This document shows, piece by piece, positions 35,130-49,927 of a stretch of 59,089 bases of DNA. The notes under the pieces are model-generated. The model was given only the letters and a program-made list of their open reading frames with translations. It did not search any database and had not been told where the DNA came from. A program made the translations under genes and the position numbers. This DNA is from a virus (Duplodnaviria; Caudoviricetes). How positions within the stretch are numbered: position 1 is the stretch's first letter; every line of letters begins with the position of its first letter. The stretch is from positions 1-59,089 of IMG/VR virus record IMGVR_UViG_3300012936_000014; one strand, written 5' to 3'.

Positions 35130-35931
35130 CCACCCATGGATCTTCACAGTTGGCAGGATTAGGATCACCATGGAATACACATACACAGGTTTCTGGTCTA
35201 GGAATGACATCTTCAATATTTTGCATCCTTCTATTGCCTTTGGTTCCACCAGGTGCAAATTGCCTATCTTTTCGTATTTCCCATTTCCAACTCATAATCC
35301 ATTCGTCTGGAAACAGCCTCGCAGGCTTTCCTTGCCTCACTGCTTCATCATACAAATAGTCTTGATCGCCAAAAAACTGTCCTTGAATTGCTTTAGGATC
35401 TGCAGAATATTTACTCCATAAAAAATCTAATTGACCAGTATAAAATTTTATAATACTGCTATTATATTTTTGCCAACCAGGACGAAAAACTCTAGTGAAG
35501 TCTCTTATTGTGCACCAATGTCCGGGTTGGAATACAAAGAGTCTATCAATATTACCTGCTATTACAACATCCAAGTCCATATAAACTATTGTACCTTTTA
35601 TAGGCAAATCTTTAGAATACATATAAGGTTTGCACCACCAACCTTGAAGATTACTAGGTATAGGAATTACAATTATATTATCATTTAAACCTGTAGCATC
35701 TTCAGTCATACAAGCAAATTTAAAATTAAGTGTGCAATTACGTTTACACATCCTGTAAAGACGATTTACATATTCTGATGAATATTTTGTGCCATGTTTC
35801 AAACACAACACAAAATATTCGTTTTCAGTCTCAGGAATATGTAGACGTTTTGTTTCTTTTTCTCTACGTCTTTGCTCTCTTATGCGATGCCATTCAGCTT
35901 TAGTGTATATTTCTTTTTCAATCTTTGCCAT
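35113..35931 (-). CDS. Glycosyltransferase-like protein (GT-A fold)
   Basis: CLKHGTKY, YMDLDVVI (DxD), YNSS, GDQD, VFHGDPNP. Confidence 0.7.
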   Translation of the reverse strand: MAKIEKEIYTKAEWHRIREQRRREKETKRLHIPETENEYFVLCLKHGTKYSSEYVNRLYRMCKRNCTLNFKFACMTEDATGLNDNIIVIPIPSNLQGWWCKPYMYSKDLPIKGTIVYMDLDVVIAGNIDRLFVFQPGHWCTIRDFTRVFRPGWQKYNSSIIKFYTGQLDFLWSKYSADPKAIQGQFFGDQDYLYDEAVRQGKPARLFPDEWIMSWKWEIRKDRQFAPGGTKGNRRMQNIEDVIPRPETCVCVFHGDPNPANCEDPWVVDNWL

Positions 35932-36403
35932 CTGCAAAAGACACCTTCTGAATTTCAAATGGTGTATAAATTGCACTGTTAGCACCATGCTCAGCACATT
36001 CTGCTGATTCGCACCAACAACGATTATCAGTAGCTTCACGTACTAAATTATCTGCAAATCGCCAGGCATGTTCCGCAAATTTTTCTGCACCTACACCATC
36101 AAATTGTCGTATCTCTGCAAGACCTTTTGACTCAAGTAATAACAAATCATCTTTCATAGGATCATCTTTGTCTATACAAAGTTTATGATCAAATGAATCT
36201 TCAAGCCAGGCTTTGAGTGGTTTCAAACCGCCAAAGTCTACTGCCCAGTTTTTATTATCTAAAGTAGAACAACCAAATGTAAATTTAAATTGCAAACTAT
36301 ATCCATGTAGTAGATGACAGTGTGAATGATCTGCGTTAGGTTGACGGAACACCGCTGATAGTCCGATGTTGTGTCCGTATGTTTTTGTACTGTAATAAGC
36401 CAT
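35918..36403 (-). CDS. queD: 6-pyruvoyl/6-carboxy-tetrahydropterin synthase
   Basis: HSHCHLLHGYS, VDFGGLK, FDHK. Confidence 0.85.
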   Translation of the reverse strand: MAYYSTKTYGHNIGLSAVFRQPNADHSHCHLLHGYSLQFKFTFGCSTLDNKNWAVDFGGLKPLKAWLEDSFDHKLCIDKDDPMKDDLLLLESKGLAEIRQFDGVGAEKFAEHAWRFADNLVREATDNRCWCESAECAEHGANSAIYTPFEIQKVSFADGKD

Positions 36404-36465
36404 ATTATCTCCTATATAATAATGGCGGCAGAATTAGAAGGGTTGACGCCAAGTCCTATTGTGTT

Positions 36466-36494
36466 ATATTACATGAAATTACTTATCTTGTCAA
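36466..36494 (-). promoter_or_regulatory. Sigma70-type promoter upstream of the queD leader
   Basis: TTGACA-N17-TAATAT. Confidence 0.6.
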
Positions 36495-37035
36495 GTGAAA
36501 CATTTGGATAATTCCAGGATTCTGGTAAAATCCATTCATCATTATATATTGTAAATTTGTGTGTAGGAAAACATTTGAATACCATTCCTATTTGATGTAT
36601 CCAATATCTTGGATCAACAGCATGTTTATTTTCTGCATCATACCCTTTTGTGCCTTTATAAATGTTATTGACTGTTTTAGTTTTGCTATGTAAATCAAAA
36701 CCAAGCATTTGTATATCATATGACAACGTACATCCTAATAATACTGCATAAGGTCCGCTACCCCACTGAAAAGGTTCATCCCATCTTTGGGTACCATGAT
36801 AAGGTAGATCAGGTACAATTTCTACATCCTGAAATTGTCCAACCCAATCTTTCCTTGTATATATTATTCCCTTGAAATTATTTTCTTGTGCGTCTTTAAC
36901 CATGCGCCTATCAACACACACTAAATAATCTACAGCAAAATCTCTGTGTATGGCATTACATCCTACCACCACATCTCGGCATTGACTTATGTCAACTCCG
37001 ATTCTACTTTCACCGTTACCAATTATCCTTGTCAT
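36469..37035 (-). CDS. Hypothetical protein (GNGxSR...GCNA...GFD, sialyltransferase-like fold possible)
   Basis: IIGNGESR, GCNAIHRDF, MLGFDL. Confidence 0.55.
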   Translation of the reverse strand: MTRIIGNGESRIGVDISQCRDVVVGCNAIHRDFAVDYLVCVDRRMVKDAQENNFKGIIYTRKDWVGQFQDVEIVPDLPYHGTQRWDEPFQWGSGPYAVLLGCTLSYDIQMLGFDLHSKTKTVNNIYKGTKGYDAENKHAVDPRYWIHQIGMVFKCFPTHKFTIYNDEWILPESWNYPNVSLDKISNFM

Positions 37036-37315
37036 TTTTAAACATCTTTTTTGTTTCGCGGATTTCTTTAAGTACTTCTTTGAATGTTAGTTCATTTGCT
37101 TTCTGGTAGGCGAAAATCACTTTAATTTTATCAACACACCACCACCACCAAAATACACTTACTAATAAGAATACGGTAATTATACCACATATTACATCAG
37201 CTTTCCAGTCAGTACCTAATATTTCTGAACTAATTAAAAGGAAAACCGCTACGAACGGTAATGTCCATGCGGCATATTTCCACCATTTTACTTGCCTTTT
37301 TATTTTTTCCCACAT
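37016..37315 (-). CDS. Membrane protein with two TM segments
   Basis: GGAGG SD before MWEKIK; two hydrophobic helices. Confidence 0.65.
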   Translation of the reverse strand: MWEKIKRQVKWWKYAAWTLPFVAVFLLISSEILGTDWKADVICGIITVFLLVSVFWWWWCVDKIKVIFAYQKANELTFKEVLKEIRETKKMFKNDKDNW

Positions 37316-37370
37316 ATGTTTGCCTCCTTGCCTTTTAGCAAGAGTATTTACTCTCTGTCTTTTCATTATT

Positions 37371-38483
37371 TTATGATGCTATTTGGCCGAAAGGTTTCCA
37401 TTCACCTGGCGTTCCTTCTCGGACACATATCCAACCAACATAGCCTGTTGGTTTAGGTGAGGTGTTCCAAACAATATCACCAACTCTGTAAGATCCTTCT
37501 GTTGGTGTGTTTGATCCTACTTGCATTTTTTTGCCTTGCATTTTTATAGGACCGGCTGTGGTAATATCAGCATCTTCGCTAAAGTTACTAACATTTATAC
37601 CTAGTTTTCCTTGCACACTTACTTTGTTGTGCATTGTGATTGAGCCACTGTCTTCAATATGTATTCTTGTGGCATTATCTGTGATAATTTTTAATTCACT
37701 AGTTGTCCAAGTACCAAGTTTGAAAGTACCAACATCATTATGATCTACAACAAACTCGTGTTCTAACGATCCTATGCTTAATGCGCCATTTGGATTGTCG
37801 TGACCTATACCAAAACGCATTGTCTCACTATCATAATAAATGAAGTTGTCTAATGTAACATCACCTTCTACTGATAGATTTTGTAGTGTTCCTACTGTTG
37901 TCAAAGAACTTTCAGTAACTTCTTGTCCTAGTGATGTGCTTGAAAGCACAGGTCTATTAGCAATTCTAAAACTTTGATTTTTATGTAGGTCAATGCTGTT
38001 GCTACTAAACAACCTATCGCCTTGCATAGTAAATTGTCTTGTATTACCTTCTCCTGACCAAATTAATCCCTTGTTACTTACACTACCGCCTTCTGCACGG
38101 AATTCTAAATTGCTAGTTGTTTCGTTTCTTATATCAGCAACTACTTCATCTACATGTAATTTTGTAGCATGTACTTCTCCGGCAACAGTCAAATCACCAC
38201 CAACTGAAAGTGCATTAGGTATATTGCTAACATGAGCTGTGTTTACAGTAATACCTTCGTTTGTAACTTGTAGTACAAAATCACTTGCAGTGTCTTTAAT
38301 TCCAGCACTGCTGAATTGTGCTATTCTACCACCTTGTATTTTATTTCCAGATAGACTCCTATCAAGAATGTTGTTTACATCCGGTGCTTTCAAAGGGTTA
38401 TTCGCAATGGCTTCTATTGCTGAAGATACAGCAGTAAATCCATTTCGCATTTCTAATAGTTTTTGATCGATTGGTTTGCTCAT
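37371..38483 (-). CDS. Virion/fibre-like structural protein
   Basis: Beta-rich repeats, SSLTTVGTL; C-terminal GDIVWNTSP...GWICVREGTPGEW. Confidence 0.7.
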   Translation of the reverse strand: MSKPIDQKLLEMRNGFTAVSSAIEAIANNPLKAPDVNNILDRSLSGNKIQGGRIAQFSSAGIKDTASDFVLQVTNEGITVNTAHVSNIPNALSVGGDLTVAGEVHATKLHVDEVVADIRNETTSNLEFRAEGGSVSNKGLIWSGEGNTRQFTMQGDRLFSSNSIDLHKNQSFRIANRPVLSSTSLGQEVTESSLTTVGTLQNLSVEGDVTLDNFIYYDSETMRFGIGHDNPNGALSIGSLEHEFVVDHNDVGTFKLGTWTTSELKIITDNATRIHIEDSGSITMHNKVSVQGKLGINVSNFSEDADITTAGPIKMQGKKMQVGSNTPTEGSYRVGDIVWNTSPKPTGYVGWICVREGTPGEWKPFGQIAS

Positions 38484-38494
38484 GTAAGTATTTA

Positions 38495-39787
38495 TCAAGA
38501 AACCTTGAGTAGGATGGTTTCAGGATTTATTCTTCCATTTAGCTTTGTATCTGTAGTAGGTATCTCTTCGATAAATTTACGTAATTTTACCTTGCCTGCA
38601 TCTTTGAACTGTTTAAGTTGTTCAGGTGGTTTCCTAAGTGTTTTCTGTATACTAAGTTTTTCGTCAAATCCTTGTATAGTTGTGCCTTTTACACTTAGTC
38701 CACTTCCGTCTCTTTGCATACCTTTAGGATCTATATTGCTTGCAACATATTTGCCAATTTTTCTATTTTTTACATTGAATACCCAAAGCTCACTTGCACC
38801 AATTATTTGTGCAGGATCAATACTTGCAAGTTTGTATTTGTCGTCTACTTTTAGATATTTTAATTTTGCTACTAGTTTATCAGCACTATAAACTTTTGGC
38901 TTACGAGGTTTACGTGTTGCTTTTGCACTATCAATAACAAAGTCTAGTGCGGCAATAAGTTCACCTATAGCAATCCTGTAGTTTTTAATATCTGCTTTTT
39001 TAATATGTGCATAACCTTCTTTTAATTGTGCCCATTGATCAGCTTCAAACTCGCTCATTTTTTTTAGTTGTCCTGCTGTTGGCATTCGTTCTAATTCATT
39101 ATAGTCTACTAAAGCATCTACATAAAACGTTTTCAATTTGCGAGCATGGGCTTGAGTTACACCTTTGTCTGCAAAGTGTTTTTTGAAGTCGAACCCTTTC
39201 GGGTCAAATGACTTTGGGTCAACTAACCAACCTTCTAACCAATCTTCAATTGCTTCGCTTTGTATGTATGCTTGGTCACGTATACGCTCTTGTATAGTAG
39301 GTACATATACATCTTTCTTTGCCTTTTCTTCTTTTTGTTTGACTTCTACAACTTTGCTACCAACTTGAATTGCACGTTCAATGCGTTCTTTAAGAAACTT
39401 TGTGGCGGGTTGTGTAGTACCCATTGTGCCTGGAAGACTTTCCCAGTATTCTGCTTCTTTAGGATTGTAGTCTGGCATACCGTCTAACAGTTGCTTTGCA
39501 ACAATAGCGGCAGTTATACTTAATTCATAAGTAGGTGCGGCCTTAGCATGTTTAATTTGTTCTTTTGTATAGCCGTTGTCAGCCATCCATTTGTATGTGT
39601 GTGGATACAAATCTGTTGCTTTATAGTTTTCATAATAAAAAGAACGACTTGCATCACGAAATCTATGATACTTTTGACCATCCCAATCTTGCCAACCGTC
39701 CCAACTAGGTGCTTTAAGTTTATCACCTCGCCTTACTCTTGGCGCTCCTCTGACAACTTTCTTCTTTGTTCGTTTTGGTAATGCCAT
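38495..39787 (-). CDS. Hypothetical protein
   Basis: 430-aa Lys-rich ORF with AGGAG SD and its own promoter. Confidence 0.75.
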   Translation of the reverse strand: MALPKRTKKKVVRGAPRVRRGDKLKAPSWDGWQDWDGQKYHRFRDASRSFYYENYKATDLYPHTYKWMADNGYTKEQIKHAKAAPTYELSITAAIVAKQLLDGMPDYNPKEAEYWESLPGTMGTTQPATKFLKERIERAIQVGSKVVEVKQKEEKAKKDVYVPTIQERIRDQAYIQSEAIEDWLEGWLVDPKSFDPKGFDFKKHFADKGVTQAHARKLKTFYVDALVDYNELERMPTAGQLKKMSEFEADQWAQLKEGYAHIKKADIKNYRIAIGELIAALDFVIDSAKATRKPRKPKVYSADKLVAKLKYLKVDDKYKLASIDPAQIIGASELWVFNVKNRKIGKYVASNIDPKGMQRDGSGLSVKGTTIQGFDEKLSIQKTLRKPPEQLKQFKDAGKVKLRKFIEEIPTTDTKLNGRINPETILLKVS

Positions 39788-39811
39788 TGTACTCTCCTGA
39801 TTGTTTATAGC

Positions 39812-39840
39812 AGTATATAGCAAAGGTTGTATTGTGTCAA
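39812..39840 (-). promoter_or_regulatory. Sigma70-type promoter
   Basis: TTGACA-N17-TATACT. Confidence 0.7.
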
Positions 39841-39850
39841 GAAAAAATGA

Positions 39851-39937
39851 CTAGATAATGCCTATCCAGTGTGTGCAATCATCGCATGGATCGTCAACGT
39901 GGGTTGCTTGCCACATCAATATTTCCTCTCTAGTCAT
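39851..39937 (-). CDS. 28-aa microprotein (not in the ORF track)
   Basis: MTREEILMWQATHVDDPCDDCTHWIGII; TAATG coupling to the upstream gene. Confidence 0.4.
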   Translation of the reverse strand: MTREEILMWQATHVDDPCDDCTHWIGII

Positions 39938-40125
39938 TAGTGAAGGTCAGGATCTCTACCAAGACCTTTTACTGTATAAATTCGTTCTTCTTGAATTTCG
40001 TATGTCTCGGTAGGATTTTGCTCTTTGAGAAAGCCAACTACAGTTTTTGCATGTTCTTCGTCTGGTAGATTGCTTTCAATAACGTTATTGCGAGAATCCA
40101 CAATATGATATTTAAATGTAGCCAT
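39937..40125 (-). CDS. Hypothetical protein
   Basis: 62-aa ORF; TAAATA 4 nt upstream. Confidence 0.65.
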   Translation of the reverse strand: MATFKYHIVDSRNNVIESNLPDEEHAKTVVGFLKEQNPTETYEIQEERIYTVKGLGRDPDLH

Positions 40126-40171
40126 CAGTTATTTAATAGACTAAACATTACAATAAACTATGCTGATAATA

Positions 40172-40447
40172 CTAACCTTCTTTTTCGAGGTCCCAATACA
40201 CTTTATTAGGTGGTGACGCAGGGCTATGCTTACGAACATTAGAAAAAACCTTCCAAGTTGCAAACACCATTGTGATCAAAAGTATATGACCAATAATGCT
40301 ATATCCTATAAACAACAATTCAGCTGTATATATTCCAAACGCAACACACCAGAAAGATGCTAGTATAATACTAATCATAAATTTATATTCTGGTGGCGAT
40401 TCTCTTAATCCATTTTTATTAGGATTTAAAATATCAAATAGTATCAT
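40172..40447 (-). CDS. Small membrane protein
   Basis: Two hydrophobic segments; AAGGAG SD. Confidence 0.65.
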   Translation of the reverse strand: MILFDILNPNKNGLRESPPEYKFMISIILASFWCVAFGIYTAELLFIGYSIIGHILLITMVFATWKVFSNVRKHSPASPPNKVYWDLEKEG

Positions 40448-40553
40448 TTAGAAATCTCCTTCAATACCATTAATGGTGTAAGTTTTTCCTTTGAACCCAC
40501 TATCCATTTTTTCTTTGTCAGACATTCCTTCGCCATCAATTCTTTGTTTGTGA

Positions 40554-41876
40554 TTAAATTTTTTCTCCTGCTTCAAATCCTCGGAAGGTTTTGAATCTTG
40601 GGAACCTGAGACTATACGTTTCAGAATCTTGAGACTTCGTTCTAGCATCTGCTCTTATCTCAACTAGCTGACCAACGAGACTATCACGTTCAGTCCAGTA
40701 CTCATCACGTTGAGCATCAGTGAAGCCGCTCCCACAGTTAAGGCGATAATTGTATCCATCGTCTTCTCCTTCTACAATAATGGCACCTAATCTTCCTTCA
40801 TTACGGCCTGTGCCTTCTTCAACCGCAACAACACTTAATGTAATCTCAATAAACGGTTTTGCCTTTAACCAACTATGCGTTCTTTTGCACTCATAAGGTG
40901 CATCTACATCTTTGATCATTACACCTTCGTAACCACCGTCTACAGCCGCTTTATTAAGCTCTATAAAGCGTTCTTGACCTTCAGCAGTACTTAGATCTAC
41001 ATCTTCCCATTCAAGTGCTTGTACGTGCTGTAAAACGCTTTCATTCTGTTCTACCCAAGCCTTAACTGCCTGACTTCTAAATGACTGTGGTTTGTCCCAA
41101 ATACCTTTTTGGAAGTCTGCTAGTGGACACATATCAAACAAGTGTAAGACTGCGTCATCTGACTGCTTGCCATCCTTACGATGCACCTGCTTCATAAGGT
41201 CTTGGAAGTTAGCACTCATTACTTCGCCATCTAATACAAGATCATATGGCGCAGGCTTTTGTGCAATCACTTCTTCAATCTCTGCAATAATGTGGCCAAA
41301 GTTATGAAACTGCTTACCGTTACGTGAAAACATTTCTACTTTGTCGCCACGGATGATTGTAATAACACGAACACCATCAAGTTTAATTTCAATCTGTTTC
41401 TTACCTACCATTTTCTTTTCATGGTTAGCACTATCATGTGCAAGTGGACAAGTAAACACAGGAATAGCATATTGCGGAAACTTTTTAGCAATCTTATTCA
41501 CTGTCTTTTCTGATACACCACAACGTAGATCTTTAATTAAAATACGTCTGTAAAACATATTCCATTGTTCTGTAGTTGCCACACTCATTGCAAGTTCAAT
41601 TGCATCACGTGCCGCATGTCCTGTAAGCTCTCTATTTATAAGCTGATTTGCTAGTGTTTTAAAATTATCCCAGGATAGTCCTTGTCCTGTCAGTACATCT
41701 GTACGTTCTGGTACTTGCTTTACACCAAATGTTACAAGCGGATCCAGTGCCATCTTGACACCTTCAAAAAATTCATCTAAGCCCTCAGTCATAGCTTCTT
41801 CTATCACTGCTTCTTTTGCAAGTCTAGAATTATCTGCCTCTAGTTTTTCAATTATTGTTTGTGGTTGTGTTCTCAT
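40554..41876 (-). CDS. ATP-dependent DNA ligase
   Basis: KLDGVR (motif I), LDGEV, FD, EGVMIK, WLKAK, CGSGFT, LRFPRF. Confidence 0.95.
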   Translation of the reverse strand: MRTQPQTIIEKLEADNSRLAKEAVIEEAMTEGLDEFFEGVKMALDPLVTFGVKQVPERTDVLTGQGLSWDNFKTLANQLINRELTGHAARDAIELAMSVATTEQWNMFYRRILIKDLRCGVSEKTVNKIAKKFPQYAIPVFTCPLAHDSANHEKKMVGKKQIEIKLDGVRVITIIRGDKVEMFSRNGKQFHNFGHIIAEIEEVIAQKPAPYDLVLDGEVMSANFQDLMKQVHRKDGKQSDDAVLHLFDMCPLADFQKGIWDKPQSFRSQAVKAWVEQNESVLQHVQALEWEDVDLSTAEGQERFIELNKAAVDGGYEGVMIKDVDAPYECKRTHSWLKAKPFIEITLSVVAVEEGTGRNEGRLGAIIVEGEDDGYNYRLNCGSGFTDAQRDEYWTERDSLVGQLVEIRADARTKSQDSETYSLRFPRFKTFRGFEAGEKI

Positions 41877-41907
41877 AGTTGCCTCTCTTCATTGCCTAAT
41901 TTTATAC

Positions 41908-41935
41908 ATTATAACACAATATACTTATATGTCAA
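41908..41935 (-). promoter_or_regulatory. Sigma70-type promoter for DNA ligase
   Basis: TTGACA-N16-TATAAT. Confidence 0.7.
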
Positions 41936-41942
41936 CCGAAAT

Positions 41943-42016
41943 TGGACACCTAGGAGGGAATCGAACCCCCATACACGGAGTTGCAGTCCGTTGCATAGCC
42001 ATTCTGCCACTAGGTG
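41943..42016 (-). tRNA. tRNA-Cys (GCA)
   Basis: Acceptor CACCTAG/CTAGGTG; anticodon arm ACGGA-CTGCAAC-TCCGT; TTCGA loop; U73; encoded CCA. Confidence 0.95.
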
Positions 42017-42017
42017 T

Positions 42018-42091
42018 TGGCATCGGTGCAGGGAGTCGAACCCCGGCTTTCAGTTTTGGAGACTGACGTGCTACCGTAACACTTCACCGAC
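42018..42091 (-). tRNA. tRNA-Trp (CCA)
   Basis: Acceptor GTCGGTG/CACCGAT; anticodon arm TCAGT-CTCCAAA-ACTGA; G73; encoded CCA. Confidence 0.95.
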
Positions 42092-42126
42092 AAAAAAAGC
42101 CCCTAACAAATTAATGCTAGGGGCTT
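42092..42126 (-). terminator. Intrinsic terminator (attenuator 3:4 hairpin) immediately upstream of tRNA-Trp
   Basis: AAGCCCCTAGCA-TTAATT-TGTTAGGGGCTT with a 7-T run ending at the first base of the tRNA. Confidence 0.9.
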
Positions 42127-42168
42127 GTTGACGTCTTTTTAAAATTCACGTCAAGACATACCCCTAAC
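42116..42168 (-). promoter_or_regulatory. Antiterminator (2:3) hairpin of the attenuator
   Basis: GTTAGGGG...TTGACGT (42168-42148) pairs with ACGTCAA...CCCCTAGC (42134-42116), which sequesters the terminator 5' arm. Confidence 0.8.
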
Positions 42169-42211
42169 TCGGAGGCCAACAAGTAATGTTTGTTGTGTTA
42201 GTCTTGATCAT
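42164..42211 (-). CDS. 15-aa leader peptide MIKTNTTNITCWPPS with adjacent Cys-Trp codons
   Basis: ATG ATC AAG ACT AAC ACA ACA AAC ATT ACT TGT TGG CCT CCG AGT TAG; AAGGA SD 8 nt upstream; the stop codon lies inside the antiterminator 5' arm. Confidence 0.8.
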   Translation of the reverse strand: MIKTNTTNITCWPPS

Positions 42212-42240
42212 GTAAATATTCCTTCTTTGTTTATAATACT

Positions 42241-42269
42241 AATATAGTACATCTATTTATGAAAGTCAA
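42241..42269 (-). promoter_or_regulatory. Sigma70-type promoter driving leader peptide, tRNA-Trp and tRNA-Cys
   Basis: TTGACT-N17-TATATT. Confidence 0.7.
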
Positions 42270-42287
42270 CCTTTTTTGGCAAAAAAT

Positions 42288-42388
42288 TGGCTCTGGGGGA
42301 AGGACTCGAACCTCCACGCTAAATATATTGCAGTACATTTGGCACACGAGAAACAATCGTGCGTGTCTACCATTTCCACCACCCCAGA
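42288..42388 (-). tRNA. Atypical 101-nt tRNA: GUU (Asn) anticodon on a Leu-like class II body with a long variable arm
   Basis: TCTGGGG/CCCCAGA acceptor, G73, CCA; D arm GTGGAAATGGTAGACAC; CACGA-TTGTTTC-TCGTG; 29-nt variable region; GGAGG-TTCGAGT-CCTTC. Confidence 0.85.
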
Positions 42389-42392
42389 TCGG

Positions 42393-43238
42393 TTATGCCG
42401 CTATCTTTTTACTTTGTTCTAAAAGATCTAAAGCGGCAATCATTCTTGTCATTCCTATTCCGCCGCCAACTCTTTCAAAGAAGTCGAACTCTAAAAACTT
42501 TTCAAGTTCTGCTTCAACTCTATCTTTGCCAAATAGTTCGTATAATAGATTACTGTAAGCACCATTAGTAATAGTATGAAATGTGTTTCTCATTTGATCT
42601 ACATCAGTTGAACGCTCTGCAGATCCTATTGTTTCCATTCCACCTAGTATCACATCTATTTTCTTACTGCTATCGCCATCGTCATTTCTGCTCATATTCC
42701 AAAAAGGTGATGTCATTTCAGGAAAGTCTGTGATCATTGCAGTATCAAATTGTTCATACATTTTAGTTTCATGCTCTGCTTCTAGTTCGTCACTTGCACT
42801 CAATTCAAAATGTGTTTGCCATTGTCTGTAAGTTTTTTCTGTAGGTTTTGTAAAACCTAGGTATTCAACTAATTCATACTCCATCTTTTTAAGATCGTTT
42901 ATGTCACCTGGCATTTCAAATTCAAACATTGGAAATATTATATCGTGTCTGCCTGGTATAGCATTAGGCTCTTGTCTGTAAGATGTGCTGACACAAAAAA
43001 AGCCCTTTGCATCGGGCTGTGAAAGTAATTCATGTTCTAACCACATTTGGCCTGTTTGCGGCAACGGCCACACTTGGCCTGCGTAATTGTATGTTGCTAC
43101 ATTGAATGGGTCTTCACATGCGGCAAGTATACTTAATCTATTTTGTGTATGTACTTCTTGGAAACCTTTGTCCAAAAAAAATGACCTTAAAAGGCCAACT
43201 GTTTTAGTAAATTTACTTGGGTTTATGAGTTGTGTCAT
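42393..43238 (-). CDS. Class IIb (Asn/Asp) aminoacyl-tRNA synthetase catalytic-core paralog lacking the anticodon-binding domain (AsnRS-like/asparagine synthetase-like)
   Basis: Motif 1 FFLDKGFQEVHT near the N-terminus; motif 2 YRQE...GRH...FPMFEFE; ETIGSAER; motif 3 GGGIGMTR; 281 aa. Confidence 0.85.
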   Translation of the reverse strand: MTQLINPSKFTKTVGLLRSFFLDKGFQEVHTQNRLSILAACEDPFNVATYNYAGQVWPLPQTGQMWLEHELLSQPDAKGFFCVSTSYRQEPNAIPGRHDIIFPMFEFEMPGDINDLKKMEYELVEYLGFTKPTEKTYRQWQTHFELSASDELEAEHETKMYEQFDTAMITDFPEMTSPFWNMSRNDDGDSSKKIDVILGGMETIGSAERSTDVDQMRNTFHTITNGAYSNLLYELFGKDRVEAELEKFLEFDFFERVGGGIGMTRMIAALDLLEQSKKIAA

Positions 43239-43312
43239 TTCTTTTTCCTTTTCTGAATTTCAACCTAAAAAAAATTTGCTCAAAAAAAATTTGAGCTTAT
43301 TCTTAAATCAGT

Positions 43313-43477
43313 TTATTTATCATTTTCCTTGTCCGCCCTGCCTTTTTCTCCACAGTGCGGACAATGGAAGGTAAATCTTTCTATGCACATCCGGTCCTCC
43401 ATAGTTGCGTATGTAAACCAGTTGCTACACTTTTTGCATGTTAGGTGCCATATGATTTCTTTTACGGCTTTGAACAT
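43313..43477 (-). CDS. 54-aa zinc-ribbon protein (not in the ORF track)
   Basis: MFKAVKEIIWHLTCKKCSNWF...FHCPHCG; TAAATA upstream. Confidence 0.7.
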   Translation of the reverse strand: MFKAVKEIIWHLTCKKCSNWFTYATMEDRMCIERFTFHCPHCGEKGRADKENDK

Positions 43478-43492
43478 CTTGTGAGTATTTAT

Positions 43493-43852
43493 CTACTCGT
43501 GTTCTCCACCTGGATCTTCTTTAGGTAACTTTACTCTTTTCCCATCAATCCACATGTAGCCTCTGTTTCGACTAGGAGTGCTTGTGGGAAATTCTGTAAA
43601 AAATGTAGGCTTATTTTTCGCTAGTTCAAATGTACCTACTGTTATTGCAATAGCACCAAGTAATGCTACGTGAGCAACAGCACTTATACCAAAAACCCAA
43701 AAACTACCTACGTAAAAACTGAACACGATACACCACATCCAAGCAAGTACCTGCAATACCATGTGTCTGGCTTGAAGATCTGGAATATGCCTTAGCGGAT
43801 TTACTTCTGCATTCATTACACTGTTCCAACTAGTATAAACAAATTCTCTCAT
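43493..43852 (-). CDS. Membrane protein
   Basis: Two TM segments (LQVLAWMWCIVFS..., HVALLGAIAITVGTF). Confidence 0.7.
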   Translation of the reverse strand: MREFVYTSWNSVMNAEVNPLRHIPDLQARHMVLQVLAWMWCIVFSFYVGSFWVFGISAVAHVALLGAIAITVGTFELAKNKPTFFTEFPTSTPSRNRGYMWIDGKRVKLPKEDPGGEHE

Positions 43853-43854
43853 TT

Positions 43855-44028
43855 TTATCTCCCAAAAAATTTTCTTGCAGTATTGATAGGATTTTTTAAA
43901 CCTTCATAAGTTTCATCAATAAATCCTATATGTTTACTTAGTTTAACATCAAGTCTATCAATTGTCGACTGTAATTTGTCTACTTTATCAATCAATTTTT
44001 TCAATTTCTTTTCTAACTCTTTATCCAT
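43855..44028 (-). CDS. Small coiled-coil protein
   Basis: Start moved to MDKELEKK, downstream of tRNA-Leu. Confidence 0.6.
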   Translation of the reverse strand: MDKELEKKLKKLIDKVDKLQSTIDRLDVKLSKHIGFIDETYEGLKNPINTARKFFGR

Positions 44029-44043
44029 TGTCTCGCTCTGTGT

Positions 44044-44127
44044 TGGTGCCCATGGAGGGACTCGAACCCCCACGCCGTAAGCACAGGTACCTAAAACCTG
44101 CGTGTCTACCAATTTCACCACATGGGC
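44044..44127 (-). tRNA. tRNA-Leu (TAG)
   Basis: GCCCATG/CATGGGC acceptor; CAGGT-TTTAGGT-ACCTG; variable arm; A73; CCA. Confidence 0.95.
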
Positions 44128-44315
44128 TATGTAGAAGTTGAACCAATTGGTTTACATTCATATCTTACAGTATCCCAATCACCGTCTGTTGGAAGTTCAG
44201 TGTAAACTTTTAGCATCTTATCACATTCTGTTTTAGAATCAAACCATTGTATGTCTTGATCAAGACAAGTTGATCCTAAACATACGGTTAACAAAATGTG
44301 CCAAATCACTTCCAT
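44127..44315 (-). CDS. Small Cys-containing hypothetical protein
   Basis: 62-aa ORF with a hydrophobic N-terminus, SD and its own promoter. Confidence 0.65.
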   Translation of the reverse strand: MEVIWHILLTVCLGSTCLDQDIQWFDSKTECDKMLKVYTELPTDGDWDTVRYECKPIGSTST

Positions 44316-44336
44316 ATTACTTCCTATTATTTACGT

Positions 44337-44365
44337 ACTATAACACCTTTTTATTATTGTGTCAA
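44337..44365 (-). promoter_or_regulatory. Sigma70-type promoter
   Basis: TTGACA-N17-TATAGT. Confidence 0.7.
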
Positions 44366-44875
44366 GTATTTTTTTTTGGTCATCCTATATGTCATAAAAG
44401 TTCTTTCTTTTCCATGTTCATGTAATTTAAGTGTTTCATCATACACATGGGTGAATCCAAGTTTTTCAGTTGCACGTTGATTACGTTTGTTATCATGCGT
44501 CATATGAATATGCACGTTGTCATAATATTTAAATGCATGGTCTATTAATAAAAAACGGAAACTGTGATTGTATGTTCCTCCCCAATATTGTCTACCTAAA
44601 AAAGTACTGCCCATATAAAGTCTATCCTGCACAGTATAATATCTTGTTGTGCCTATCTGCGTGTTATTATTATTTTCAAGTATACAAAAACTTTTTCCTG
44701 TACTAAGTAAATGATTAAAAAATCTAGTAAACGGTTTTAATTCATACCTGTTTTTGGCAGGCATGCCTTCCCATATAAGCGGGTCTTTGGCTACAGCATA
44801 GAGAGGCCAATAATCGTCTTGCACCAATGGCCTTACTGTTACTAAATCATTTTTAAGTGTTGGTTGAAAATTCAT
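44354..44875 (-). CDS. GNAT (RimJ/RimL-type) acetyltransferase-like protein
   Basis: IGTTRYY, GSTFLGRQYWGGTYN, NKRNQRATEKLG. Confidence 0.8.
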   Translation of the reverse strand: MNFQPTLKNDLVTVRPLVQDDYWPLYAVAKDPLIWEGMPAKNRYELKPFTRFFNHLLSTGKSFCILENNNNTQIGTTRYYTVQDRLYMGSTFLGRQYWGGTYNHSFRFLLIDHAFKYYDNVHIHMTHDNKRNQRATEKLGFTHVYDETLKLHEHGKERTFMTYRMTKKKYLTQ

Positions 44876-46532
44876 TTATTGCCCATTCACGTTCTTCGCA
44901 CCACCAACATTTACCACATGCGGGGTCACTTACTTCGCAACTAAAACTAACATCTAAGAGTTCTTCTATACACATACTGTGATACAATGCTATAACAACA
45001 CTTTTATCTATGTTGTAAAATGGTCTTAGGGTTTTTTTATCTCCCCCTTTAGTTAAATCTTTATCACGTCTAGTATCACGTTCATTGTCACTGTCAAACT
45101 TTACTGGAGGATTTGAAGTCATACCATTTAACCATGTGTCTATATCATGTTTTCTTTCTATTTCTTTTTTAATCTGTCTGCGTTCTGCTTCTATATTATC
45201 TTCACTAACAGTTCTAATATAATGAGTGTTAATTTGATCAGGATAGTATTGTTGTATCCAATCTACTACTGCTTTAGCATAAGGTAATTGATGCCTTCTG
45301 CTAGTCCTATCTATTGTTAAAAGAACACACTCGTGCCCTGCCTGACACAGCATGTATAGTAATAACGCACTATCGGCACCTCCACTTATTGACACACCTA
45401 CCTTTTTAGGCACCTGTAACAGTATTTTCTGTATGTAATCATTTTTCCATAATCTATCTCTACTGTTTTCGCTTGCTACTTCCTTTAACACTTCAGAGGC
45501 AGATATACCATTGTATTGTTGTAAACAATGATCACCTCCATAACAAATAGTATCACCAGGTATACTGCTAATAAACTGCTTGGCATTTTTCCAACTAGCA
45601 TTGCTGTCTTTTAGCAAGTTTCCCGGCATACGTTTTAGGGCACCGTTCCACCATATCACTCCATTGCCTGTTGTGTTTTTGAAAATAGGCTTCATATCAT
45701 CTGGATCAGTAATGTTTACTCTATGAAAGTGATGTTGTAGTTTTTGATATGAACGCCAATGATCTAACCATCCATCGCCAAATTCATTTTGAAGTGCGTC
45801 CCACACTATCCTCTTGGTTTTTCCTTTGCTAGAAAATTGACTACGATTAAAAAGACCTATAGTAGGAAATTTTTCATTTACATGATCTATCCAAGCACCT
45901 AATTTTTTACCATCCCAATTTTCAATAGTATATTTTCTAACCTGTAAACTTGGTTTACTAATATCTATGTGATGCACTACAGTATCTTTATGATAACCAT
46001 GATATTGTAGCAAACTGTTAATAAAAAATCCACTACTTACTGTCATTGCCCAGTCAACAGGACCTGTTTTATTGCCATGCACTGGCAACTCATTGTGTAC
46101 TAGATATGACATATTGCTGTCGTCTATCAAATTTTTTACAACAGCAGTGTGACCTGTTAAGAAATTTTGTTCGGTATCGCTTGGGATATAATCAACTGTT
46201 CTATCGAGAGTTAAATTTTGCTCTCCTGTGCCTTTAGGTTGCCATACTCGAACAGTGGGTAGAATATATGTCCATTCATAGTTTTCTAAATTTGGAGCAA
46301 CGTGTCTTTCGTATGTTCCCCATAGAAAAAGTGTACCTGCTTCTATAAGGAGTACACTGCTATAGTGTTCAAAGTGACTTTGTACAAATTTATCAACTAC
46401 ATAGTAGTCCATAGAATCTGAACTATATCTACTAGATACACTGAAATCTATGCTTAGTTGACTGTAATTATTCGCTATCAGGTTATACCATTTATTTCCT
46501 GTACTAATAATAATTACTGCCTTAGAAGCCAT
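44853..46532 (-). CDS. Unknown N-terminal domain fused to a QueC-like PP-loop ATPase
   Basis: C-terminal part: VSISGGADS, RPF..DK, SFSCE...CGKCWWCEER. Confidence 0.65.
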   Translation of the reverse strand: MASKAVIIISTGNKWYNLIANNYSQLSIDFSVSSRYSSDSMDYYVVDKFVQSHFEHYSSVLLIEAGTLFLWGTYERHVAPNLENYEWTYILPTVRVWQPKGTGEQNLTLDRTVDYIPSDTEQNFLTGHTAVVKNLIDDSNMSYLVHNELPVHGNKTGPVDWAMTVSSGFFINSLLQYHGYHKDTVVHHIDISKPSLQVRKYTIENWDGKKLGAWIDHVNEKFPTIGLFNRSQFSSKGKTKRIVWDALQNEFGDGWLDHWRSYQKLQHHFHRVNITDPDDMKPIFKNTTGNGVIWWNGALKRMPGNLLKDSNASWKNAKQFISSIPGDTICYGGDHCLQQYNGISASEVLKEVASENSRDRLWKNDYIQKILLQVPKKVGVSISGGADSALLLYMLCQAGHECVLLTIDRTSRRHQLPYAKAVVDWIQQYYPDQINTHYIRTVSEDNIEAERRQIKKEIERKHDIDTWLNGMTSNPPVKFDSDNERDTRRDKDLTKGGDKKTLRPFYNIDKSVVIALYHSMCIEELLDVSFSCEVSDPACGKCWWCEEREWAINEFSTNT

Positions 46533-46550
46533 ACATTTTTCCTTGTAAAA

Positions 46551-46626
<76 letters not shown>

Positions 46627-46648
46627 ATTATCTATTTACTCCAAAAAA

Positions 46649-46722
46649 TGGAGCGGCATATCGGATTCGAACCGATGACAAGAGCTTGGAAGGCTCGCAT
46701 GTTACCACTACACCAATGCCGC
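46649..46722 (-). tRNA. tRNA-Gly (TCC)
   Basis: GCGGCAT/ATGCCGC acceptor; CT-TCC-AA loop; U73; CCA. Confidence 0.95.
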
Positions 46723-46723
46723 T

Positions 46724-46812
46724 TGGCGGAGGATGTGGGAGTCGAACCCACTCAACGCTATAAACGTTGTACGGATTAGCAATCCGCTGCCTTACCGTCC
46801 GGCCCATCCTCC
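46724..46812 (-). tRNA. tRNA-Ser (GCT)
   Basis: GGAGGAT/ATCCTCC acceptor; TT-GCT-AA loop; long variable arm; G73; CCA. Confidence 0.95.
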
Positions 46813-46818
46813 TAAGAT

Positions 46819-47247
46819 TTATTTTACAAAGTTAACTTTGTATTGCTTGCCGTCTAAGTAAAATGTAATAGTGCTATGACTATAAACAGTTTCTTGTGAT
46901 TCTTCATATCTAGTTTCAGTTTGGCAAACTCTTTTTGTACCACCTGTTGCCTTACTATTATTATGGCCTATGATACCTCCAAGTAGAGCGCCAACAGCAC
47001 CGCCATTATCAACATTCTTGGTAACATTGTTTCCAATAATTCCGCCGATAATTGCACCTTTAAGTGCATCGCCTGTTTTATCTCCGCTTACAGAAACATC
47101 TCTACAAATTTCTACTGAGTAAGGCTGTTGATTAATAACAGTCTTATAACTATCAGTAACATTACCAGAGACACTATCCATAGCTAGTGCAGGATGGCAA
47201 CCTACTAAGATGGCACCAACTAGAGTACCTAAAATTTTAGTCTTCAT
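46819..47247 (-). CDS. Glycine-zipper (2TM) secreted/envelope protein
   Basis: Signal peptide; GAIIGGIIGN and GAVGALLGGIIG. Confidence 0.75.
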   Translation of the reverse strand: MKTKILGTLVGAILVGCHPALAMDSVSGNVTDSYKTVINQQPYSVEICRDVSVSGDKTGDALKGAIIGGIIGNNVTKNVDNGGAVGALLGGIIGHNNSKATGGTKRVCQTETRYEESQETVYSHSTITFYLDGKQYKVNFVK

Positions 47248-47566
47248 TTCCTTCATCTCCTCCGTTCCCATAAGGAACAATTCTTATTGACTTTACTCTA
47301 TCATATCTAAAGCTACGAAAGCCTTTTGATTCAAGAGCCCATACTGCAATAACCTTGTCATTTTTTTGCGTAGTTTCTTTTTTAGGATCTGGAAAGAAAC
47401 TTTCAATTAATGTACAAGGCATTACACGTTCATCACCATCCAACTTTGTGAATGTGACTTCGACTACTTCTTTACGAAGTAATTCAATTAAATCCTGTCT
47501 TGTAGGAATACCTTTAAGAGCCGCTACTGTATCAGCGACTGGTGACGACTTTGTCTGCAAGTCCAT
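47237..47566 (-). CDS. WYL-like SH3/Sm beta-barrel phage protein
   Basis: [17 protein letters not shown]...[13 protein letters not shown]. Confidence 0.65.
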
Positions 47567-48119
47567 ATTCTACTGCCTCCTCTGCACTCATAAATGTATC
47601 TCGGTCCATGTCTTTTTCAAAGTCCTCAAAAGTTTTACCTGCTGAGTTATGTTTTACATAAAGCTCGGTCAACATAGTTTTCATTTTAGTTATTTCTTTG
47701 TATTGAATTTCAATATCACTTTGCTTGCCACCTGCACCACCACTTGGCTGGTGGATCATTGTTCTACTATACGGAAGGACAACTCGCTTACCAGGAGCAC
47801 CTGCTTGGGCTAAGAAACTGCCCATTGAACATGCTTGTCCTAGTACAATAGTTCTTACGGCTGGTTTAATAAACTGCATAGTATCGTATATAGCCATTCC
47901 GGCAGTAATTACGCCGCCAGGTGAATTTATATAAAGGTTAATATCCTTTTCAGGATTTTCACTTTCTAAAAACAACATCTGTGCAACAATTAAATTTGCT
48001 GTTACATCTTCAACTGGACCGTTAAGCATTACTATTCTATCTTTCAACAAACGTGAATAGATATCGTATGAACGCTCTCCACGTGATTCCTGCTCAACTA
48101 CCATAGGTACTAAAGGCAT
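47532..48119 (-). CDS. clpP: ATP-dependent Clp protease proteolytic subunit
   Basis: [35 protein letters not shown]. Confidence 0.96.
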
Positions 48120-48283
48120 TATAACTCCTCCGCAATTCCAAGGAATTCAGCAACAAGGAATCCGCTTGCTAACCAGAATACATGTCCTGTGTATAATGTT
48201 AATACACAGCCTGCGATACGAACTGCACTTTTTACCATGCTAATGTAAAAATGTTTCTTTGAAACATCTACTGGCTCAGCCAT
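48119..48283 (-). CDS. 54-aa membrane protein (not in the ORF track)
   Basis: [26 protein letters not shown]...[10 protein letters not shown]; GGAGG SD; TAATG coupling to clpP. Confidence 0.7.
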
Positions 48284-48476
48284 TCTTCACCTCCGCTAAC
48301 GGTTCAACAGAACTAGTATCAATCCAATCACTGCCGTTTCCTTGAAAAGTTCTTGTTGTTGTTTCTTTACGCAACATACCGTTTTTTACACGATATGTAA
48401 TAAACTCTTGTTTCACAACACCTGTAGTGTCTGCTTCAAACGCACCTATAAGTGGTCCATCTAACTTACTGTTCAT
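48276..48476 (-). CDS. Hypothetical protein
   Basis: 66-aa coupled ORF. Confidence 0.65.
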   Translation of the reverse strand: MNSKLDGPLIGAFEADTTGVVKQEFITYRVKNGMLRKETTTRTFQGNGSDWIDTSSVEPLAEVKNG

Positions 48477-48700
48477 TTTCTTCCTTCCTTTAATACAAAA
48501 CTGTCTGGCCCTGGCGTTGTAAATTCCATTCCAAATGCACTACCTACATATACACGACCATTAAATTTCATATGTATTTTGTTTGTAGCCATGTAAATGT
48601 CCATAGATTGTTTTACTTTAAAATTATCAACTTCAGCTTCAACAATTTTATCGTTATTTGTGCATGTAACCATACACACTTTATCAAATATTTCTTTCAT
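48473..48700 (-). CDS. Hypothetical protein
   Basis: 75-aa coupled ORF. Confidence 0.65.
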   Translation of the reverse strand: MKEIFDKVCMVTCTNNDKIVEAEVDNFKVKQSMDIYMATNKIHMKFNGRVYVGSAFGMEFTTPGPDSFVLKEGRK

Positions 48701-48915
48701 TTCGCTCCTAACAGTTTTAAATTTAATACAAAGTTCTCTACCATTAGTTTAACACATATTGCTTTCAGTGTCAATACATTATCGTCCATTTCTGCAACAT
48801 GCATTGCCATCAAACGAAATGCTTCTTTTTCGCTTATGTTTAGTTGACCCCAATCAATAGGGTCAACTGTTTCACAATCTTCTGCAAGTTCTGCAAGTAG
48901 TTTCCAGTCCTGCAT
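48697..48915 (-). CDS. Hypothetical protein
   Basis: 72-aa coupled ORF. Confidence 0.65.
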   Translation of the reverse strand: MQDWKLLAELAEDCETVDPIDWGQLNISEKEAFRLMAMHVAEMDDNVLTLKAICVKLMVENFVLNLKLLGAK

Positions 48916-49424
48916 TACAACTCCTCAATGTTTAAAGGAGTGTAATTGATCTGTTCTACACATACACACTTGTATGGGCCTTCTGGAGAAGGATTACTAT
49001 GGATGTGTCCATGTACGTTTAACAAATCTTCTGCGTCAAACCTATGCGTTTCAGCAAGTGTAGTTGAATGCAAAGGCGTATGCGAAAAGATAAAGTTGTC
49101 CATTTGAATCCATAACTGCATGTCCTTGAAGAACGGTGCAAGAAATTTTGGATTATCATGGTTACCTAAAACAAGTCTTTTCTTACCAGGTAATTTTGAA
49201 AAGTTCGCAGTCAACCAATCAACCTTGTTCTCTCCGAAAAGAACATCTCCGCAGTGTATCACCGTGTCGTTTGGTTTCACAGTGCTTACCCAGTTATCCA
49301 TCATACATTCGTTCATTTGATCTACACTATCAAATGTTCTAGGAGGTTTTCCAGCATAATCTTTGAAGGTAAGGATAGCCGCATGATTGAAATGCGTATC
49401 GCTAATTACGAATGTATCTGCCAT
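48915..49424 (-). CDS. Calcineurin-like metallophosphoesterase
   Basis: SDTHF, HCGD, GNHD, SHTP, VHGHIH. Confidence 0.9.
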   Translation of the reverse strand: MADTFVISDTHFNHAAILTFKDYAGKPPRTFDSVDQMNECMMDNWVSTVKPNDTVIHCGDVLFGENKVDWLTANFSKLPGKKRLVLGNHDNPKFLAPFFKDMQLWIQMDNFIFSHTPLHSTTLAETHRFDAEDLLNVHGHIHSNPSPEGPYKCVCVEQINYTPLNIEEL

Positions 49425-49490
49425 GGTATTACCTATGAGTGTGTTAATTATGTGTATAATTATTACATATATGTGTTAGAAAGTCAACCT

Positions 49491-49724
49491 TTATTGGTTA
49501 ACAAATTTAGGCCATTGTGCGGCAAAACTATCTGCGTCAAGTTTATATTCAAACAAGAAAGTATCTTCATAAACATCTGTATATTCTGATATATTCCATT
49601 GATGCTTAAACATTTGCACTTTGCAGTATTCTTTGCCCTGTGTTCTTAAATCGCTATGTAATCTTACTCTGTATGCATTAGGTTCCCAACGCTTTTTATA
49701 CTCAAAAATTTCAATAGGTGTCAA
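49491..49724 (-). CDS. Hypothetical protein
   Basis: TTG start after an AGGAGG SD. Confidence 0.6.
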   Translation of the reverse strand: MTPIEIFEYKKRWEPNAYRVRLHSDLRTQGKEYCKVQMFKHQWNISEYTDVYEDTFLFEYKLDADSFAAQWPKFVNQ

Positions 49725-49912: not shown

Positions 49913-49927
49913 AGATTTGCTCCTCTT

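Follow-up and report, generated by a model that had tools for sequence, protein, structure and literature searches.

A candidate leader-peptide attenuator that may sense the tRNAs of its own operon in a lineage of uncultured marine phages

Classical attenuators control genes of biosynthesis, transport and aminoacyl-tRNA synthetases. The trpL leader of E. coli carries a small open reading frame (ORF) led by a Shine-Dalgarno (SD) sequence, with a Trp control codon that precedes the stop by three to four codons, and four RNA segments that can pair as 1:2, 2:3 and 3:4; a ribosome that has reached the stop codon lies over segment 2, and an intrinsic terminator lies about 70 nt past the stop. The multivalent attenuators of thr (Thr, Ile) and of ilvGMEDA and ilvBN (Ile, Leu, Val) sample several charged tRNAs with one leader, and their control codons, set in runs, reflect the end products of the pathway. 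In pheST with its pheM leader, in other attenuators of synthetase genes and in T-boxes, charging status is converted into a choice between terminator and antiterminator over parts of the translation apparatus; pheM controls a synthetase, and T-boxes are untranslated and bind tRNA directly. To our knowledge, none of the systems of this last group controls tRNA genes. Here we describe a locus on the minus strand of IMG/VR virus record IMGVR_UViG_3300012936_000014 (59,089 bases; the window below is this whole record), in which the trpL features named above, the alternative pairings as predicted ones, recur ahead of phage tRNA genes. CheckV estimates the completeness of the record at 17%; thus, the window is a piece of a large phage genome. 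We consider it quite likely that the locus is a ribosome-mediated, leader-peptide transcription attenuator gating a phage tRNA operon, and that these tRNAs are probably produced only at times of shortage.

The likeness to trpL is one of layout. The phage locus would regulate tRNA genes, whereas trpL regulates biosynthetic enzymes; its segment 1 holds the start codon, not control codons; its leader has one Trp codon where trpL has two, with several amino acids represented; and there is no sequence similarity. An Rfam cmscan of 40000-48000 at E <= 1 returned only tRNA and weak matches unrelated to leaders, none of them overlapping 42092-42240, and neither the leader families (Trp, His, Leu, Thr and Phe leaders) nor T-box gave a match in that region. 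Like the thr and ilv leaders, the phage leader would sample several charged tRNAs; unlike them, its codons are mostly single, track the tRNA genes of the unit and change between close relatives as tRNA genes come and go. The pheM leader controls a synthetase and the phage leader would control tRNA genes, and it differs from a T-box in having an ORF. The difference in kind from the known attenuators is the target, tRNA genes in a phage, and a codon set that follows the operon's own gene content would amount to product feedback, not to end-product sensing by proxy.

Phage tRNAs are held to sustain translation in hosts whose own tRNAs are unsuitable, depleted or cleaved, as codon compensation or counter-defence (PMC10264068, PMC11464382, PMC11555353, PMC11726456). 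As far as the available text of these papers goes, they treat the function of the tRNAs, whereas the present locus concerns the control of their expression; in PMC10264068 a term search for attenuat-, leader, terminator and promoter gave no hit, and no sensor of tRNA expression is described there. Literature searches, with subscription journals and supplements outside their coverage, turned up no report of tRNA genes under leader-peptide attenuation. E. coli pheV was considered as a precedent and dropped: in K-12 a promoter stands directly before pheV, and there is no leader ORF.

Read along the minus strand, the unit begins with a sigma-70-type promoter at 42269-42241 (TTGACT at 42269-42264, a 17-nt spacer, TATATT at 42246-42241; score 10/12), from which leader and tRNAs would be transcribed together. 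The SD sequence AAGGA (42224-42220) stands 8 nt 5' of the ATG of an ORF of 15 codons and a stop, MIKTNTTNITCWPPS (42211-42164, with TAG at 42166-42164), in which the proposed sensing codons are TGT (42181-42179) and TGG (42178-42176). Segment 1, CAUGAUCAAGAC (42212-42201), holds the start codon and forms the 5' strand of helix 1:2 in the minimum free energy (MFE) structures and by covariation. Segment 2, GUUAGGGGUAUGUCUUGACGUG (42168-42147), delimited from region folds and the alignment, overlaps the stop codon. Segment 3, ACGUCAACAAGCCCCUAGC (42134-42116), can pair with segment 2 as an antiterminator or with segment 4 as the terminator. The latter (42126-42092) has a 12-pair stem, AAGCCCCUAGCA/UGUUAGGGGCUU, followed by a U-run, and its T-run ends at 42092, abutting the first base (42091) of tRNA-Trp(cca) (42091-42018; ARAGORN; Rfam 58.0 bits), the first gene of the unit. 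The last gene, tRNA-Cys(gca) (42016-41943; ARAGORN; Rfam 58.7 bits), follows 1 nt past tRNA-Trp, and downstream of it lies the promoter of a DNA ligase gene (41935-41908, also on the minus strand; 12/12 by promoter scoring). The octamer GTTAGGGG is present twice, across the stop codon (42168-42161) and at 42107-42100; CCCCTAGC lies at 42123-42116, TTGACGT at 42154-42148 and ACGTCAA at 42134-42128. An earlier note on this DNA had claimed the promoter, SD, ORF, terminator and both tRNAs, together with the duplicated octamer, its shared partner and the TTGACGT/ACGTCAA extension, and all of them lie base for base where it had put them. It had also held that transcription of the tRNAs from an internal promoter past the terminator would speak against attenuation; promoter scoring of the window found no second promoter-like site on the minus strand between the leader promoter at 42269 and the tRNAs.

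From this layout we infer translation of the leader in vivo, stalling of the ribosome, the direction of control and its physiological trigger, and we propose the following course of events. The RNA from the promoter at 42269 would, by its sequence, bear the SD and the 15-codon ORF. When no ribosome loads, segment 1 would pair with segment 2, the 3:4 terminator would form and the polymerase would halt one base before tRNA-Trp. When a ribosome translates smoothly to the stop codon, which lies in or next to segment 2, it would cover this segment, and the terminator would form as well. When cognate charged tRNA is scarce, the ribosome would wait at TGT-TGG, or, in relatives, at any codon of a sensing stretch upstream of the GGGG of segment 2; segment 1 would be unwound or held apart, and segment 2 would be free to pair with segment 3 upon its emergence. 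Once 2:3 has formed, the terminator would be blocked, and tRNA-Trp and the tRNAs contiguous with it would be transcribed. Such a shortage might come from decay of host tRNAs, from a defence that targets or cleaves tRNAs, or from a host tRNA pool that is poor or mismatched. Since the codons of the leader correspond to the tRNA genes that follow it in the unit, the supply of these tRNAs would feed back on the operon that makes them.

The interpretation as an attenuator is supported by comparative evidence, namely the anatomy and its conservation, the covariation of helices 1:2 and 3:4, the balanced energies, the match between codons and tRNAs and the positional restriction of this match. Homologs of two flanking proteins were found in 597/599 and 595/598 candidate IMG/VR stretches, of which the best 80 of each were kept, and two DNA patterns added more IMG/VR loci; out of more than 600 loci in existence, the resulting pool of 351 consists of 350 related IMG/VR contigs and the window's own stretch (L001). 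It holds 153 tRNA-Trp genes by ARAGORN with 94 distinct upstream regions, and a terminator is present in 74/94; in these 74 the module recurs in the order promoter, SD, short ORF, terminator, tRNA-Trp. A TTGAC-type promoter stands at the equivalent place in the relatives. The arrangement is tied to one tRNA and lies far outside chance: a hairpin with a T-run abutting the gene is present in 43/78 distinct upstream regions of tRNA-Trp, against 4/389 for the remaining tRNAs of these loci, and no fewer than two of the four are the mere end of a preceding tRNA. An attenuator was found before no other tRNA type in these loci.

The comparison of leader codons with downstream genes used 61 distinct combinations of leader and tRNA set, with 25 distinct contiguous sets behind tRNA-Trp; tRNAs count as contiguous when all gaps from tRNA-Trp on are <=40 nt, and the sensing stretch begins at codon 2 and ends at codon -7, counted from the stop. 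A cognate codon is present in the leader for 90/92 contiguous non-Trp tRNAs, against 64.0 +/- 3.1 when the sets are shuffled (maximum 76 in 10,000 shuffles). With the near-universal Cys and Pro set aside, 32/34 are matched, against 12.4 +/- 2.6 (maximum 23), and with a narrower codon window, from W-2 to W+4, the figures are 88/101 against 59.6 +/- 2.9. All nine leaders that have no Cys codon (9/9) are also followed by no contiguous tRNA-Cys (table 32/0/20/9). The matched types include Ser(tga), Ile(tat), tRNA(cat), Gln, Tyr, Gly and Arg(acg), and single loci make the point directly: the unit Trp-Arg(acg)-Cys is preceded by a leader with C-W-R-R, encoded with CGC CGC (L155); the unit Trp-Pro-Ser(tga)-Cys by W-C-S-P-S, with TCA (L159); the unit Trp-Ile(tat)-Tyr-Pro by I-Y-W-Y-P-I, with ATA (L285). 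Two sister rows differ at one and the same codon, L167 with GGT (G-W) and a tRNA-Gly in its unit, and L237 with TGT (C-W) and a tRNA-Cys.

The match is also confined in space. From the ribosome footprint it had been predicted, before anything was computed, that a codon could take part only if it stood at -7 or at a greater distance from the stop. Enrichment is found at -7 to -9 and at -11 to -14 (z 2.8-6.5), is weak at -10 (z 0.8) and is absent from -4 to -6; it is thus confined to codons at which stalling would keep the ribosome off the antiterminator. It ends at the end of the unit as well: tRNAs past a gap of >40 nt match at chance level (6/17 against 3.9 +/- 1.2). A near-consensus promoter, TTGACA-N16/17-TATACT or TATAAT, is present in all six of the 45-50-nt gaps examined and in both 134-nt gaps, so the tRNAs beyond belong to other transcription units. 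In the two 134-nt gaps (L039 3147-3280 and L007 704-837) the promoter, TTGACA-N17-TATACT, belongs to tRNA-Arg(gcg) and is followed by a strongly structured leader of about 90 nt with no evident ORF; the gaps fold at -27.4 and -24.1 kcal/mol, and this may be a different kind of leader.

In the test that the earlier note had proposed for homologous loci, and which might have failed, leader codons thus co-vary with the identity of the downstream tRNAs, and they do so when phylogeny is considered. Common descent by itself gives related leaders like codons and like tRNA sets. On a tree built from the leader backbone without the body of the ORF, independent pairs pooled over tRNA types gave 16.7 concordant, 0.5 discordant and 16.7 tied comparisons (sign test, median p 6e-5, maximum 0.012), and 19.0, 1.8 and 17.2 with the narrower codon window. 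We think it reasonably likely that the leader acts as a translated codon barcode, in which the sensing codons stay in step with the tRNA genes gained and lost and the operon is switched on only when the supply of exactly those charged tRNAs falls.

Several points weigh against this interpretation. The backbone tree is weakly resolved and mosaic, with 13/52 inner branches starred, and the characters are pooled on one shared tree and not fully independent; the pair test is support, not proof. The match fails for two contiguous tRNAs, Ser(gct) of L163 and Lys(ttt) of L072, the latter with an AAA codon one codon beyond the defined sensing stretch. There are 20 leaders with a Cys codon and 31 with a Pro codon whose units lack those tRNAs, 10 Trp-only units among them; the rule is therefore that a tRNA implies its codon, whereas a codon does not imply its tRNA. 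The near-universal W-P(-P) might instead serve to pause or arrest the ribosome, or might be a partner of the GGGG in the 1:2 conformer, as in the MFE structure of the window leader, and the Pro-Pro to Arg-Arg change of L155 coincides with a change in segment 2 and is possibly a structural compensation. Since the sensing codons are mostly single and not in runs, sensitivity to any one tRNA may be low.

The same W-P(-P) suggests another reading of the leader, which we regard as unlikely: C-W-P-P would be a nascent-peptide or proline-dependent arrest sequence that stalls the ribosome for some other signal, such as free tryptophan, as in TnaC, the status of EF-P or translation stress; the stall would determine read-through of the terminator, and the codon match would be secondary. 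A Pro codon follows W (or W-C) in 57/61 leaders regardless of whether the unit has a tRNA-Pro, the Cys at W-1 is retained in Trp-only units, and peptides containing W-P-P are reportedly stalling motifs in E. coli. An arrest peptide, however, fails to predict the leader codons for the matched types other than Cys and Pro, from Ser(tga) to Arg(acg), that make up the 32/34; it fails to predict that tRNAs behind a separate promoter are matched no better than by chance; and the residues flanking W vary widely.

For one tRNA type, the leader codons bear on how the tRNA itself is read. In all seven units with a CAT-anticodon tRNA, called Met(cat) (L331, L334, L167, L183, L195, L039 and L045), the leader has at least two ATA codons. 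This suggests that the tRNA decodes ATA as Ile, that is, that it would be a lysidine-modified tRNA-Ile2. The window encodes a 201-aa PP-loop protein (49928-50533, minus strand; PF01171, E 2e-31), a member of the family that includes TilS.

The leader ORF, on whose translation a codon sensor would depend, is maintained as a reading frame. The frame was fixed solely by the conserved stop inside GTCTT[G/A]A, independently of TGG, and the ORFs of L176, L179, L188, L226 and L235 were checked by hand. With the frame set from the stop alone, every canonical leader (60/60) shows an ATG or GTG behind an SD and, 7-11 codons ahead of the stop, a TGG in frame; loss of the ORF or its frame in homologs, which the earlier note had named as damaging to its proposal, was thus not seen among them, start and stop being kept through compensatory changes. 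The ORFs of the relatives are 17-22 codons long and differ by in-frame indels. The canonical stop is used in 49/55 leaders; the window and one type of relative stop one frame earlier, at a TAG that still touches the GGGG of segment 2. Pro codons (CCA/CCG/CCT) and Cys codons (TGT/TGC) vary at the third position, which points to constraint on the codon family, not on the nucleotides.

With its promoter, SD, ORF and strong terminator, the leader could also be seen as a complete unit of its own, a stand-alone small gene for a micropeptide or a small RNA, behind which the tRNAs would be transcribed by constitutive leaky read-through or from upstream; the ends of the peptide, M-x-K-T... and ...G-M-S, are indeed conserved. 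These ends, however, coincide with the two strands of helix 1:2, and their conservation is thus explained by RNA pairing, while the middle of the peptide, around W, is its most variable part and changes along with the tRNA genes. As the terminator reaches right up to the tRNA, no space is left for another promoter; relatives without the cassette place their promoter exactly there; and the 2:3 alternative is energetically balanced against the terminator. We therefore consider a stand-alone gene quite improbable.

The 151-nt leader of the window folds at -46.1 kcal/mol, against -27.9 +/- 3.6 for shuffled sequences (z -5.1; 0/200 as stable), and the terminator at 42126-42092 at -20.8 kcal/mol (z -6.8; 0/200 as stable). 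A leader so highly structured and in control of a terminator might be an RNA-only switch of the T-box kind, in which uncharged tRNA or another ligand binds without any translation. This we judge extremely unlikely, because no Rfam family but tRNA matches the region at E <= 1, and because SD, start, frame and stop, kept by compensatory changes and in-frame indels, would be needless in an RNA-only element.

Comparative structure was read from alignment A1, which comprises 53 of 62 distinct leader segments (L133, L135, L190, L203, L206, L244, L043, L077 and L080 were left out as near-duplicates) and in which an AAGGA or AGGA SD is aligned in most rows. Dropped from the data were L313, whose tRNA cluster is cut at the contig end, and L210 and L026, whose upstream region is cut. 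In the family, helix 1:2 pairs CAUG.UCAAGAC with GUCUUGAC(A/G)UG, the stop codon lying inside the latter; in the window it pairs CAUG[A]UCAAGAC (42212-42201, with the start codon inside) with GUCUUGACGUG (42157-42147). Pair 55-135 of this helix is A-U in 41 rows and G-C in another 11, with a single row unpaired, which is a change of ATG to GTG with a compensating T to C, and the change of the stop from TGA to TAA is offset by C to T in segment 1. The only pair types seen in the helix are those that preserve a start codon (ATG/GTG) and a stop codon (TGA/TAA), as predicted by a double constraint of pairing and translation. In the terminator, pair 174-185 is C-G in 29 rows and U-A in 18, and 97% of the terminator cells are paired. 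Over the whole structure, two-sided changes were counted in 37 cells, against 11.1 +/- 2.2 in shuffled alignments (0/500).

Segment 2 is nearly invariant over these rows. It pairs either with segment 1, through GUCUUGACGUG, or with segment 3, through GUUAGGGGUAUG and UUGACGU. In the window, the antiterminator joins GUUAGGGGUAUG and UUGACGU to ACGUCAA and CAAGCCCCUAGC; in the family, it joins GGGGUAUGUCU to AGA(C/U)AAGCCCC, with a small hairpin at the tip. The earlier note had proposed pairing of the leader with segment 2 through TCAAGACTAAC; that the start side of the leader pairs with segment 2 is borne out, but the helix supported by folding and covariation overlaps the proposed one only in part. 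The regional energies in the window are -21.5 (1:2), -25.0 (2:3) and -20.8 kcal/mol (3:4), and the family medians are -19.9, -20.5 and -19.7 kcal/mol; the three helices are about equally stable, near -20 kcal/mol each.

For the ribosome simulation, the RNA was truncated before segment 4, the footprint was masked and the remainder was folded, in each of the 53 rows. With the A site at TGG, pairing between the CCCC of segment 3 and the GGGG of segment 2 forms in 52/53 rows; it forms in 32/53 at W+1, in 14/53 at W+2 and in 0/53 at the stop codon. A Pro codon in the A site at W+1 or W+2, where an arrest at W-P-P would hold the ribosome, thus progressively buries segment 2, which again disfavours the arrest peptide. 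The stop-codon ribosome masks segment 2 in 53/53 rows and would favour termination. The 1:2/2:3/3:4 logic claimed in the earlier note therefore gains from the balanced energies and from the expected response to the simulated ribosome positions, and falls short in the covariation of 2:3.

The following also counts against an attenuator. Helix 2:3 shows no covariation in alignment A1, with 80.1% of its cells paired against 80.3% after shuffling; its GGGG:CCCC core is invariant and thus uninformative for covariation. An invariant core would be expected for a segment with two partners, yet it is not positive evidence. The truncated RNA pairs GGGG with CCCC in 46/53 rows even without a ribosome, and the full-length MFE structure retains the terminator in 52/53 rows, masked or not. 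As equilibrium folds fail to yield the switch, the decision would have to be kinetic, that is, co-transcriptional, as in classical attenuators.

Thermodynamic folds also leave the direction of control unsettled, so control of the opposite sign or at another step deserves consideration: efficient translation of the leader might promote read-through, or the leader might govern processing or stability of the tRNA precursor, and a read-through RNA would in any case carry the whole leader as a 5' extension that needs removal from the tRNA. The ORF, however, ends about 35 nt short of segment 3 and about 70 nt short of the U-run, so a terminating ribosome cannot directly block the terminator; the masking of segment 2 at the stop codon, seen in every row, points the other way; and a positive feedback on tRNA supply would be without obvious use. 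We hold such control to be very unlikely. A candidate internal promoter inside the leader, TTGACG-N17-TATTTT, read by eye from the consensus of A1 in most relatives though not in the window, was rejected: its -35 covaries with segment 1 (TTGAC to TTAAC), the sequence at its -10 site differs in seven rows, the window included, and its transcripts would start at the terminator stem.

Some relatives show the locus without the attenuator. In nine distinct relatives that have no leader, a sigma-70-type promoter stands directly 5' of tRNA-Trp, and the leader with its terminator is therefore best described as a cassette inserted between promoter and tRNA. In others (L032, L069, L080, L070, L081, L179, L226 and more), a conserved insert of about 76-95 nt separates the terminator from tRNA-Trp; it has a long terminal stem, ACTACACTAC...GTAGTGTAGT, and no promoter noticed by eye, and might represent a hairpin for processing, a small mobile element or a small RNA.

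Outside the pool, a blastn search of the locus against 50,697 phage records returned tRNA pieces only, covering <=13% of the query, and tblastn with the ligase gave a best identity of 34%, to Bacillus and Lysinibacillus phages. The lineage is one of uncultured marine phages, without a close cultured relative. A 23-nt motif of segment 2 had 0 matches in bacterial and archaeal genome contigs (185,579 species' genomes). In a search of sequencing runs, word shares were at most 0.11. Contigs of relatives in four RNA-library runs, compared at 85% likeness, extend over the tRNAs; such contigs show neither RNA ends nor levels nor strand, DNA is possibly present, and we draw nothing from them. The same holds for a 440-nt RNA-library contig (X6, record 21) that spans leader, terminator and tRNA-Cys with 65 unlike letters between, as contigs cannot show a single transcript.

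The locus lies in a part of the window, 35918-50533, that is rich in functions of translation and RNA modification. It holds six tRNAs by ARAGORN, a 6-pyruvoyl-tetrahydropterin synthase/QueD-like protein (PF01242), a 559-aa protein with a weak QueC/PP-loop region, a GNAT acetyltransferase and ClpP (PF00574, E 4e-80). Just upstream of the attenuator promoter, a 98-nt tRNA-like gene (42291-42388, minus strand; Rfam tRNA 42.8 bits), missed by ARAGORN, appears to carry a GTT (Asn) anticodon and has a long extra region, with the CCA end encoded; at the same position in relatives ARAGORN calls Asn(gtt), Asn(att), Glu(ctc) or 'Stop(tta)', 85-100 nt long. Directly 5' of it, an ORF of 281 aa (42393-43238, minus strand) matches only the catalytic core of class II Asp/Lys/Asn tRNA synthetases (PF00152, E 8e-17), and the two may be a dedicated pair of enzyme and tRNA. 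Another tRNA gene is laid out unlike the attenuator: at 44127-44365 (minus strand), a promoter TTGACA-N17-TATAGT (11/12) and an SD are followed by a 62-aa ORF with no Pfam match, the TAG stop of which abuts the first base of tRNA-Leu(tag) at 44127. The mRNA and the tRNA appear from this arrangement to share one transcript, with no terminator.

The regulation of phage tRNA genes is largely uncharted, and the debate so far has been on what the tRNAs are for. If our reading is true, this would be the first case of tRNA genes under a ribosome-mediated attenuator, it would extend classical attenuation from biosynthetic and synthetase genes to RNA genes, and it would be a natural, reprogrammable sensor of individual tRNA species. 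The relatives would form a natural variant series, in which a change of codon brings a change of the tRNA sensed, usable as codon-specific tRNA sensors. The leader may also serve as an aid to annotation: it predicts the boundaries of the operon, as a tRNA with another promoter ahead of it is not represented, and decoding identity, as with ATA codons and CAT-anticodon tRNAs. For the phages themselves, the cassette would provide a mechanism of tRNA homeostasis during infection, and a link between depletion or cleavage of the host tRNAs and the expression of the phage tRNAs.

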